Assembly (NCBI RefSeq): GCF_003334405.1
Contig: NZ_QOWM01000001.1
DNA length: 64,000 nucleotides
Direction: 5' to 3' (one strand)
DNA from: Escherichia coli
GTDB taxonomy: Bacteria; Pseudomonadota; Gammaproteobacteria; Enterobacterales; Enterobacteriaceae
The position numbers and the translations under genes were made by a program. The notes under the pieces were generated by a model that was not told where the DNA came from, did not search any database, and saw only the letters and a program-made list of their open reading frames with translations. Shown here piece by piece: positions 39,601 through 53,197 of this stretch (the first letter of the stretch is position 1; every line of letters begins with the position of its first letter).

Positions 39601-39685
<85 letters not shown>

Positions 39686-39701: not shown

Positions 39702-41774
<2,073 letters not shown>

Positions 41775-43091: not shown

Positions 43092-43130
43092 CAGTAGGTC
43101 GGAGTAGACGCGCCAGCGTCGCATCCGACG
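43092..43130. repeat. REP-like element downstream of fabB
   Basis: GTAGGTCGGAGTAGACGCGCCAGCGTCGCATCCGAC resembles the REP consensus in inverse orientation. Confidence 0.5.
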
Positions 43131-50529: not shown

Positions 50530-51798
50530 ATGATTATCAAACGCACTCCTCAAGCCGCGTCGCCTCTGGCTTCGTGGCTTTCTTATCTGGAAAACCTGCA
50601 CAGTAAAACTATCGATCTCGGCCTTGAGCGCGTGAGCCTGGTCGCGGCGCGTCTTGGCGTCCTGAAACCAGCGCCATTTGTGTTTACCGTTGCGGGTACG
50701 AATGGCAAAGGCACCACCTGCCGTACGCTGGAGTCGATTCTGATGGCGGCAGGGTACAAAGTGGGCGTCTACAGTTCGCCTCATCTGGTGCGTTATACCG
50801 AGCGCGTACGTGTGCAGGGCCAGGAATTGCCGGAATCGGCCCACACCGCCTCTTTTGCGGAGATTGAATCGGCACGCGGTGATATTTCCCTGACCTATTT
50901 CGAGTACGGTACGCTGTCGGCGTTGTGGCTGTTCAAGCAGGCACAACTTGACGTGGTGATTCTGGAAGTAGGGCTGGGCGGTCGTCTGGACGCAACCAAT
51001 ATTGTCGACGCCGATGTCGCGGTAGTAACCAGTATTGCGCTGGATCATACCGACTGGCTGGGTCCAGATCGCGAAAGTATTGGTCGCGAGAAAGCAGGCA
51101 TCTTCCGCAGCGAAAAACCGGCAATTGTCGGTGAGCCGGAAATGCCTTCTACCATTGCTGATGTGGCGCAGGAAAAAGGTGCACTGTTACAACGTCGGGG
51201 CGTTGAGTGGAACTATTCCGTCACCGATCATGACTGGGCGTTTAGCGATGCTCACGGCACGCTGGAAAATCTGCCGTTGCCGCTTGTCCCGCAACCGAAT
51301 GCCGCAACAGCGCTGGCGGCACTGCGTGCCAGCGGGCTGGAAGTCAGTGAAAATGCCATTCGCGACGGGATTGCCAGCGCAATTTTGCCGGGACGTTTCC
51401 AGATTGTGAGCGAGTCGCCACGCGTTATTTTTGATGTCGCGCATAATCCACATGCGGCGGAATATCTCACCGGGCGTATGAAAGCGCTACCGAAAAACGG
51501 GCGCGTGCTGGCGGTTATCGGTATGCTACATGATAAAGATATTGCCGGAACTCTGGCCTGGTTGAAAAGCGTGGTTGATGACTGGTATTGTGCGCCACTG
51601 GAAGGGCCGCGCGGTGCCACGGCAGAACAACTGCTTGAGCATTTGGGTAACGGCAAATCATTTGATAGCGTTGCGCAGGCATGGGATGCCGCAATGGCGG
51701 ACGCTAAAGCGGAAGACACCGTGCTGGTGTGTGGTTCTTTCCACACGGTCGCACATGTCATGGAAGTGATTGACGCGAGGAGAAGCGGTGGCAAGTAA
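50530..51798 (+). CDS. folC: Dihydrofolate synthase / folylpolyglutamate synthase FolC
   Basis: 422-aa ORF with P-loop (TVAGTNGKGTT). Confidence 0.95.
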   Translation: MIIKRTPQAASPLASWLSYLENLHSKTIDLGLERVSLVAARLGVLKPAPFVFTVAGTNGKGTTCRTLESILMAAGYKVGVYSSPHLVRYTERVRVQGQELPESAHTASFAEIESARGDISLTYFEYGTLSALWLFKQAQLDVVILEVGLGGRLDATNIVDADVAVVTSIALDHTDWLGPDRESIGREKAGIFRSEKPAIVGEPEMPSTIADVAQEKGALLQRRGVEWNYSVTDHDWAFSDAHGTLENLPLPLVPQPNAATALAALRASGLEVSENAIRDGIASAILPGRFQIVSESPRVIFDVAHNPHAAEYLTGRMKALPKNGRVLAVIGMLHDKDIAGTLAWLKSVVDDWYCAPLEGPRGATAEQLLEHLGNGKSFDSVAQAWDAAMADAKAEDTVLVCGSFHTVAHVMEVIDARRSGGK

Positions 51799-52450
51799 GT
51801 TTCAGAATCGGTTAGTGGGCACGATCGTGCTGGTGGCGCTGGGGGTGATTGTACTTCCAGGGCTGCTGGACGGGCAGAAAAAACATTATCAGGATGAGTT
51901 CGCGGCTATCCCGCTGGTGCCGAAAGCGGGCGATCGTGATGAGCCTGATATGATGCCAGCCGCCACCCAGGCGTTACCGACGCAGCCGCCGGAAGGCGCA
52001 GCGGAAGAGGTGCGGGCAGGTGATGCCGCAGCACCGTCGCTCGATCCGGCCACTATTGCAGCCAATAACACCGAGTTTGAACCGGAACCTGCACCGGTCG
52101 CCCCACCGAAGCCGAAACCGGTGGAGCCGCCTAAACCAAAGGTTGAAGCACCACCTGCGCCGAAGCCAGAACCGAAGCCGGTCGTGGAAGAAAAAGCTGC
52201 ACCGACGGGTAAAGCCTATGTTGTGCAACTGGGTGCGCTGAAAAATGCCGATAAAGTGAATGAGATTGTCGGTAAGCTGCGCGGTGCCGGTTATCGGGTT
52301 TATACGTCGCCATCCACGCCAGTGCAGGGTAAAATTACCCGTATTCTGGTTGGGCCGGATGCCTCGAAAGATAAGCTGAAAGGTTCGCTGGGTGAGTTGA
52401 AGCAACTTTCTGGCTTAAGTGGCGTGGTAATGGGCTATACGCCGAATTAA
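51788..52450 (+). CDS. dedD: Cell-division protein DedD (SPOR domain)
   Basis: Start placed at GTG 51788 (VASKFQNRLVGTIVL, 220 aa); Pro/Lys-rich linker and C-terminal SPOR-like domain; overlaps the folC 3' end. Confidence 0.8.
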   Translation: MASKFQNRLVGTIVLVALGVIVLPGLLDGQKKHYQDEFAAIPLVPKAGDRDEPDMMPAATQALPTQPPEGAAEEVRAGDAAAPSLDPATIAANNTEFEPEPAPVAPPKPKPVEPPKPKVEAPPAPKPEPKPVVEEKAAPTGKAYVVQLGALKNADKVNEIVGKLRGAGYRVYTSPSTPVQGKITRILVGPDASKDKLKGSLGELKQLSGLSGVVMGYTPN

Positions 52451-52458
52451 TACGGTCT

Positions 52459-52545
52459 TGCCTGATGCGACGCTGGCGCGTCTTATCAGGCCTACGCAGG
52501 GGTAGAACCGTAGGTCGGATAAGGCGTTTACGCCGCATCCGACAC
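52459..52545. repeat. BIME: two inverted REP elements (GCCTGATGCGACGCTGGCGCGTCTTATCAGGCCTAC and GTAGGTCGGATAAGGCGTTTACGCCGCATCCGACAC)
   Basis: Canonical REP consensus matches between dedD and cvpA. Confidence 0.75.
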
Positions 52546-52579
52546 GCATTGCCCGATGCCGCAAAGGCATAAAAAGTCG

Positions 52580-52612
52580 ATGGCGTTGAATATTTTTTCA
52601 GCGCCATTTTTA
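52580..52612 (+). terminator. Weak terminator-like hairpin (ATGGCG...CGCCAT + T5) downstream of the BIME
   Basis: 6-bp stem with a long loop followed by TTTTT; weak structure. Confidence 0.3.
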
Positions 52613-52636
52613 TTGATGCGCGGGAAGGAAATCCCT

Positions 52637-52652
52637 ACGCAAACGTTTTCTT
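52637..52652. promoter_or_regulatory. PurR operator (PUR box) ACGCAAACGTTTTCTT upstream of cvpA-purF
   Basis: 16-bp match to the PUR-box consensus ACGCAAACGTTTGCGT; known PurR control of the cvpA-purF operon. Confidence 0.65.
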
Positions 52653-52708
52653 TTTCTGTTAGAATGCGCCCCGAACAGGATGACAGGGCGTAAAATCGTG
52701 GGACACAT

Positions 52709-53197
52709 ATGGTCTGGATTGATTACGCCATAATCGCGGTGATTGCTTTTTCCTCTCTGGTTAGCCTGATCCGCGGCTTTGTTCGTGAAGCGTTATCGCT
52801 GGTGACATGGGGTTGTGCTTTCTTTGTTGCCAGTCATTACTACACTTACCTGTCAGTCTGGTTTACGGGCTTTGAAGACGAACTGGTTCGAAATGGGATT
52901 GCCATCGCGGTACTGTTTATCGCTACCCTGATCGTTGGTGCTATCGTGAACTTCGTGATAGGCCAGTTGGTGGAGAAAACGGGGTTGTCAGGCACCGATC
53001 GGGTGCTGGGCGTCTGTTTCGGTGCGTTGCGCGGTGTGTTGATTGTTGCTGCCATTCTCTTCTTTCTCGACTCCTTTACCGGGGTGTCGAAAAGCGAAGA
53101 CTGGAGCAAATCACAGCTGATCCCGCAATTCAGTTTTATCATCAGATGGTTTTTTGATTATCTGCAAAGCTCGTCAAGTTTCTTGCCCAGAGCGTAA
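52709..53197 (+). CDS. cvpA: Colicin V production membrane protein CvpA
   Basis: 162-aa membrane ORF directly upstream of purF. Confidence 0.9.
   Translation: MVWIDYAIIAVIAFSSLVSLIRGFVREALSLVTWGCAFFVASHYYTYLSVWFTGFEDELVRNGIAIAVLFIATLIVGAIVNFVIGQLVEKTGLSGTDRVLGVCFGALRGVLIVAAILFFLDSFTGVSKSEDWSKSQLIPQFSFIIRWFFDYLQSSSSFLPRA

Follow-up and report, generated by a model that had tools for sequence, protein, structure and literature searches.

What lies between dedD and cvpA in Escherichia coli, and which part of this spacer keeps transcription of folC-dedD apart from the purine-regulated cvpA-purF-ubiX unit? We addressed this in a 64,000-nt stretch of E. coli DNA (hereafter the window; contig NZ_QOWM01000001.1), in which the ORFs flanking the spacer, namely accD, folC, dedD, cvpA, purF, ubiX and argT, all lie on the plus strand. 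The spacer is 258 bp long both here and in K-12. Window positions 52400-52720 match the minus strand of E. coli K-12 MG1655 exactly (100%), so published coordinates can be carried over (MG1655 coordinate = 2483472 - window coordinate, a conversion checked on the cvpA start). The locus is present in all 5,426 complete E. coli genomes, flanked in each by annotated dedD and cvpA. The MG1655 RefSeq record annotates protein-coding genes alone at this place, with REP features absent, and an Rfam scan of the whole window at gathering thresholds returned just a tRNA (17116-17187) and no family in the spacer.

The spacer is an ordinary, already-characterised one: a variable repeat insertion, a strong conserved terminator and the PurR-controlled promoter of the purF operon (Table 1). 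As a joint explanation we consider it very probable that it consists of two conserved working parts, the terminator and the promoter with its operator, and one variable passenger, a BIME-2. A preliminary description of this DNA is thereby partly supported: its operator and the insulation between the two units stand, whereas its weak hairpin and the share it gave the REP pair in insulation do not. Operator, terminator and REP/BIME are all already known, and the finding itself matters little, because it concerns a textbook PurR site, a mapped terminator and the commonest repeat class. The additions made here are small ones, namely the order-wide presence of a strong terminator, a dispensable REP pair of zero to four copies, and a possible helix across the discriminator. 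Three ORFs that run over the REPs, two on the minus strand (52335-52607 and 52415-52570) and one on the plus strand (52556-52693), were rejected as genes and regarded as by-products of the repeats.

Table 1. Features of the dedD-cvpA spacer and its borders, and a second REP pair of the window (window positions)
Feature	Position	Strand	Basis
dedD ORF	51770..52450	+	ORF list; dedD annotated in E. coli genomes
dedD stop codon TAA	52448..52450	+	ORF list, annotation
Z2-type REP, 37 nt, ending in CTAC (52492-95)	52459..52495	+	0 mismatches to Z2 consensus; hairpin fold
BIME-2 unit, 91 bp, present/absent and tandemly amplified	52463..52553	.	empty site and multi-copy alleles; 60-genome sample
Linker GCAGGGGTAGAACC, short S-type, 14 nt	52496..52509	.	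sequence; recurs in each tandem unit of other strains
Y-type REP, inverted, 35 nt, GTAG at 52510-13	52510..52544	-	3 mismatches to Y consensus; hairpin fold
Small hairpin ATGCC-GCAAA-GGCAT just 5' of the terminator	52556..52570	+	fold; kept in empty-site strain
Terminator of folC-dedD: stem 52579-90 / 52597-52608, loop 52591-96, U-tract to 52614	52579..52614	+	fold, mapped 3' end, conservation
PurR operator ACGCAAACGTTTTCTT, over -35 region and part of spacer	52637..52652	.	motif scan, ChIP-chip, conservation
Extended -10 element TGTTAGAAT (TG 52657-58, hexamer 52660-65)	52657..52665	+	sequence reading; alignment
Discriminator GCGCCCC, GC-rich	52666..52672	+	promoter geometry
Candidate conserved helix and loop (52666-71 with 52686-91)	52666..52691	+	covariation, pairing counts
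cvpA start codon ATG	52709..52711	+	Shine-Dalgarno GGGA 52700-03
REP pair: Z2 variant, 9-nt linker (39641-49), inverted Y	39603..39685		

The terminator of folC-dedD

A weak hairpin with a T-run had been proposed at 52580-52612. Its place and T-run were right, but it is not weak: the hairpin has 12 pairs, including a closing G-U and one internal G-U, around a 6-nt loop followed by TTTATT, and it folds at -18 kcal/mol (z -5.2), a value that none of 200 shuffles equals. Judged from its sequence, it is a canonical intrinsic (Rho-independent) terminator. It shares with that class a GC-containing 12-bp stem, a 6-nt loop, a U-tract and an RNA 3' end within the U-tract, and it differs in being held across the order at about 30 nt from the operator of the next promoter, tighter than termination needs.

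The 3' end of the dedD transcript, whose mapping the preliminary description had suggested as a check, has been published. The TRS tables (PMC10687069) list a 'Primary' dedD 3' terminus at MG1655 2430859 (range 2430854-64), which corresponds to window 52613 (range 52608-18) and falls inside the U-tract. The same tables show the identical hairpin at -18.9 kcal/mol and a dedD 3' UTR of 164 nt, and this terminator thus appears to have been catalogued already in the TRS annotation. From 2430859 back to the dedD coding region they list no further terminus, and therefore none at the REP pair. In the searched Adams 2021 Term-seq tables no 3' end is called anywhere in the spacer, so the terminator site is not prominent in every dataset. 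The TRS statistic for the dedD site, 0.47-0.67, is a measure of local drop-off rather than of termination efficiency and is disturbed by reads from the cvpA promoter, which lies about 60 nt further on; it leaves room for substantial read-through into cvpA. In the mechanism that we propose, folC-dedD transcripts would cross their 164-nt 3' UTR and stop at this strong terminator, which would separate the two transcription units.

Conservation of the hairpin was examined with one genome per species, using a pattern of the PUR core, a gap of 45-75 nt and the first cvpA codons, which returned at least 120 Enterobacterales loci. Among the matches listed, dedD is the upstream neighbour in 114 of 120 loci, with a spacer of 140-620 bp. 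Of these 114, at least 90 carry a hairpin with T-run that stands 27-34 nt upstream of the PUR core, with 66 distinct hairpin sequences among them. Several of the apparent misses are loci at which the script chose a stronger REP hairpin, and the alignment shows the canonical hairpin there too; among the Enterobacterales loci listed, Xenorhabdus and a few others are without it. The stem differs by lineage (ATGGCGTTGAA in Enterobacteriaceae, GTGCGGCGATTG in Yersinia, TTGCGGCGATTAT in Proteus and Morganella), and in the model-fitted alignment all 12 of its pairs have changed on both sides.

When the terminator helix and the candidate helix across the discriminator (see below) are taken together, 78% of cells pair in the fitted alignment, compared with 39-50% when partners are slid, and covariation is 0.346 against at most 0.111, a value that no shuffle reaches; the fitted alignment itself leans towards structure. 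A plain MAFFT alignment points in the same direction (71.8% paired versus 38-52% slid). RNAalifold, run on both the MAFFT and the fitted alignments, recovered neither the terminator helix nor the discriminator helix, a null result that is uninformative because it also missed the terminator helix, which is certain.

The preliminary description took the REP pair and the hairpin as probably insulating cvpA-purF-ubiX from folC-dedD. For the hairpin this is borne out by the 3' end at 52613, but not for the REP pair: because the terminator is kept across the order and the REP pair is variable or absent, it is the terminator that is the conserved insulator. What we add to its catalogue entry is that the hairpin is a strong terminator, conserved order-wide and locked about 30 nt from the operator.

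Several smaller observations concern the same stretch. Terminator and operator keep a constant distance of about 30 nt throughout the order, and within Enterobacteriaceae there is good conservation (GGAAAT-CCC) of the block GCGCGGGAAGGAAATCCCT (52616-52636), which runs from the U-tract to the PUR box. A bidirectional terminator was considered and set aside, since other genera do not keep the A-run that precedes the stem. The U-tract was likewise rejected as an UP element, as its place, about -65 to -58, is farther upstream than UP elements usually lie.

A REP pair of variable copy number

REPs and the BIMEs that they form are the commonest repeats of E. coli. An inverted REP pair had been placed at 52459-52545, and we find it at 52459-52544 by consensus match and by its hairpin folds, with the typing based on what we take to be the Z2 and Y REP consensus sequences. 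Both REPs are imperfect hairpins with an internal mismatch, and the region 52455-52550 folds at -45.9 kcal/mol (z -4.2). The REP core pattern has 12 matches in the window against 3.6 expected, a number that none of 100 shuffles reaches, and a 321-nt query has 89,570 matching places, with a median of 17 per E. coli genome, as befits a dispersed repeat.

BIME-2 elements are defined as z2 and y REPs with a short linker, in tandem copies that vary between strains (Ton-Hoang 2012, PMC3333891). From its letters, the pair is a single BIME-2 unit composed of a Z2 REP, a 14-nt linker and an inverted Y REP. It shares with that class the inverse Z2 and Y REPs with GTAG/CTAC feet, the short linker, the extragenic position just past a stop codon and a number of tandem units that differs between strains, here zero to four units of 91 bp. 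Its S linker is unlike the long, IHF-binding L linker of BIME-1. There is no difference in kind, although K-12 and the window carry one unit, whereas BIME-2 is typically described as multi-copy.

Spacer lengths in E. coli step by 91 bp, from 167 bp (no unit) through 258, 349 and 440 to 531 bp, and a spacer of 235 bp is a form with a decayed partial unit. The empty site occurs in L002 (NZ_AP022221.1), and two, three and four copies occur in L006, L005 and L004, respectively. Of 60 E. coli genomes sampled at regular intervals down the ranking, two had no unit, two a partial unit, 39 one unit, one two units, seven three units and eight four units, and the remaining genome matched only partially. 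Three units are found in ST131, four in IHE3034, and three or four in the O157:H7 strains examined; as natural alleles, WP8-S17-ESBL-08 has no unit, K-12 one and O157:H7 DEC4E four. Terminator and PUR box are unchanged in all six E. coli alleles aligned. The Escherichia-type BIME is confined to Escherichia loci among the matches listed, and some Citrobacter loci have their own, different REPs at the same site. Taken together, these observations identify the REP pair, as far as alleles and alignments can be read, as a lineage-specific insertion in the dedD 3' UTR that is dispensable and not a fixed part of the control region. The variation in copy number argues against any essential role of the REPs at this locus, and the range of zero to four copies among E. 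coli lineages is natural material for testing the effect of REPs on a neighbouring gene.

The borders of the unit bear on how copies come and go. TTGCC stands on both sides of the 91-bp unit (52458-62 and 52549-53), which leaves its boundary ambiguous by 5 bp; in the empty site the sequence is CTTGCC|CGATGCC. At the left junction, TGCC|TGAT, the letters agree with the 'iREP type I' site cleaved by TnpA-REP (PMC3333891). Flanks and junction fit either gain and loss mediated by a transposase or slippage between the 5-bp repeats. They also agree with a reading in which the pair is a neutral selfish repeat, lodged in a tolerant 3' UTR, whose copies change by recombination or through TnpA-REP; the range from zero to four copies, the decayed partial unit and the different REPs of Citrobacter in the same place favour it as well. 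We regard this as quite plausible, if a little short of probable, given that about 97% of the sampled E. coli keep at least part of the repeat and that the units within one array stay very similar, which recent amplification would also give.

Could the REP pair nevertheless be the working insulator, by stopping or attenuating transcription (through Rho, for example) or as a gyrase-bound supercoil barrier, with the hairpin as a back-up? In the introduction of PMC3333891, the functions credited to REPs and BIMEs are termination or attenuation of transcription, stabilisation of mRNA and topological insulation, with gyrase binding reported as well, the REP325 study reports that REPs attenuate transcription, partly through Rho, and within this window the REP pair at 39603-39685 has a Term-seq 3' end 4 nt downstream. 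At dedD, however, the searched 3'-end tables (TRS and Adams 2021) have no end at the BIME (MG1655 24309xx), the dedD transcript has its mapped 3' end at the hairpin, past the BIME, and the terminator is conserved even in the roughly 3% of sampled E. coli, and in the other genera, that are without the BIME. We therefore consider an insulating REP pair very unlikely. The share in insulation that had been ascribed to it likewise finds no support: there is no 3' end there in the searched tables, copy number runs from zero to four, and other genera without the pair keep both terminator and PUR box.

A milder role is compatible with the main explanation. As a BIME-2 unit between the dedD stop codon and the terminator, the repeat would be transcribed within the dedD 3' UTR, where it might at most tune the stability or translation of dedD mRNA, or bind DNA gyrase. 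More specifically, it could tune DedD output through ribosome stalling followed by mRNA cleavage and tmRNA rescue, or by slowing 3' exonucleases. According to the account of Liang et al. 2015 given in PMC12306157, REPs less than 16 nt from a stop codon stall terminating ribosomes and lower translation. The first paired base of the Z2 REP, 52460, lies 9 nt past the dedD stop codon, below that reported limit, so on this reading a terminating ribosome would stall at this hairpin, and the first REP keeps its 9-nt distance in strains with one to four copies. Against this, dedD occurs in none of the searched REP lists (the RepRanger supplement, for one, has no entry for the dedD-cvpA locus), some strains do without the BIME, and the terminator hairpin already shields the dedD 3' end. 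Such tuning of DedD is possible, though on balance we think it somewhat unlikely.

The other REPs that had been described in the window, a pair at 39603-39685 and a single one at 43092-43130, are both real, the single one being degenerate and spanning 43094-43130. The pair lies between a plus-strand gene and a convergent minus-strand ORF of 688 aa (39702-41768; mnmC in the Term-seq table), and the Term-seq 3' end 2443784 corresponds to window 39688, so that this REP pair, in contrast to the one after dedD, does lie at an RNA end. The 3' side of fabB has the same layout as that of dedD: its stop codon (43085-87) is followed after 6 nt by the degenerate REP and then by an intrinsic terminator, GGGAACC/GGTTCCC (43167-84) with a T-run, where the Term-seq 3' end 2440281 corresponds to window 43191.

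The PurR operator and the cvpA-purF-ubiX promoter

A PUR box had been assigned to 52637-52652, and ACGCAAACGTTTTCTT lies exactly there as the operator of cvpA-purF-ubiX. It is a 16-bp near-palindrome with a central CG and two mismatches to the consensus ACGCAAACGTTTGCGT, and it is the sole match at no more than three mismatches in the 64-kb window. Because a match of this quality is not rare (0.51 expected by chance), the reality of the box rests on its position, its conservation and published ChIP. In the ChIP-chip experiments of Cho et al. 2011, cvpA-purF-ubiX has a PurR peak with the motif AAGAAAACGTTTGCGT at 2,428,842-857 (older coordinates), only with adenine. These coordinates correspond to 52637-52652, and PurR occupancy of the box in vivo with adenine confirms the binding that had been predicted. 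In a Yersinia pestis purR mutant, purF is up about 4-fold. The purF operator is a textbook PurR site, and the E. coli purF operator and promoter were reportedly described by Makaroff and Zalkin in 1985 and by Rolfes and Zalkin in 1988 (both cited in PMC3159470). The site in the window agrees with that operator in all 16 bp and in genomic position; the two are one and the same locus, without differences.

Across 116 Enterobacterales sequences, the stretch that begins with the PUR box and extends through TTTTCTGTTAGAAT varies little or not at all. The constancy of the ten-base PUR core GCAAACGTTT is not evidence, because the search pattern required it, but the search did not constrain the flanks of the box or the -10 element, and these too show little or no variation; in alignment A2, positions T87, G88, T90, A91, A93, A94 and T95 of the extended -10 element are invariant. 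By sequence reading, TGTTAGAAT is the only good -10 element, and the box overlaps the -35 region that goes with it. The -35 hexamer, ACGCAA, is 17 nt upstream of the -10 hexamer, poor, and inside the PUR box. From promoter geometry, transcription of cvpA is expected to start at about 52672-74; the SMRT-Cappable-seq and Cappable-seq supplements have no start-site entry for the dedD-cvpA locus.

We would therefore place a sigma-70 promoter of cvpA-purF-ubiX about 30 nt past the terminator, with a poor -35, an extended -10 and a GC-rich discriminator. When purines are plentiful, PurR with its purine corepressor would block the binding of RNA polymerase, an occlusion to be expected because the -35 hexamer sits inside the box.

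Other reports touch the same spacer. A genomic SELEX study assigns to the cvpA/dedD spacer a weak RpoN (sigma-54) holoenzyme peak at 2,429,072 (old coordinates), about window 52422. The sigma-54 promoter that it suggests was rejected, with no convincing -24/-12 match found by eye. Transcription of the spacer preceding cvpA (52451-52708) in the reverse direction, with a preference for sigma-70 RNA polymerase, is listed in a run-off array study done in vitro; a promoter scan of the minus strand of 52451-52708 gave no candidate.

A candidate helix across the discriminator

The picture of terminator, operator and BIME does not explain one further feature, which we offer as a candidate and a lead. 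GCGCCC (52666-71), right after the -10 hexamer, can pair with GGGCGT (52686-91), and the loop of the helix holds an invariant G at 52682. A helix of other letters occupies the same place in Yersinia (TCGCCGC/GCGGCGA), Proteus (GCTTC/GGAGC), Arsenophonus (ACCTTC/GAAGGT) and Providencia (GCACTT/GAGTGC and GCATTCGC/GTGAATGC), and Rahnella is without it. In the MAFFT alignment 82.7% of cells pair, versus 35-50% with partners slid, and covariation is 0.168 versus at most 0.067. In the fitted alignment the values are 85.4% versus 39-59% and 0.289 versus at most 0.082, with five of the six pairs changed on both sides. Single-sequence folding energies of the region are ordinary (median z -0.9).

Because its 5' arm is the discriminator, upstream of the expected start, the helix should be absent from the promoter's own transcript. 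If it acts as RNA, it would form only in dedD read-through RNA or in RNA from an upstream promoter, and read-through would then be a selected, structured route into cvpA-purF-ubiX, the opposite of simple insulation. We consider this unlikely. Leader hairpins of the pyrC/pyrD type, where control is by start-site switching, resemble the helix alone in being short hairpins at the start of a nucleotide-biosynthesis transcript. They differ from the present case, in which the 5' arm is made up of positions 1-6 past the -10 hexamer and precedes any plausible start, and the Shine-Dalgarno sequence is uncovered; for these two reasons the pyrC mechanism would not fit.

A bolder version has the terminator leaky on purpose, with dedD read-through giving cvpA and ubiX a basal supply independent of purines, on an RNA that carries the helix. 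That cvpA and ubiX also serve functions outside purine synthesis counts for it, as do the pairing and covariation of 52666-71 with 52686-91 and a TRS statistic of only 0.47-0.67. Yet the folding energies of the helix region are unremarkable, RNAalifold does not recover the helix, and operator-bound PurR could itself block read-through, and we find deliberate leakiness distinctly improbable.

Two minor points concern the region downstream of the promoter. An upstream ORF from the ATG at 52680 was rejected because this ATG is ACG in Salmonella and Citrobacter and the ORF is accordingly not conserved. Term-seq places a 3' end at 2430606 (window 52866), 157 nt into the cvpA coding region, which that study scored as not Rho-dependent.
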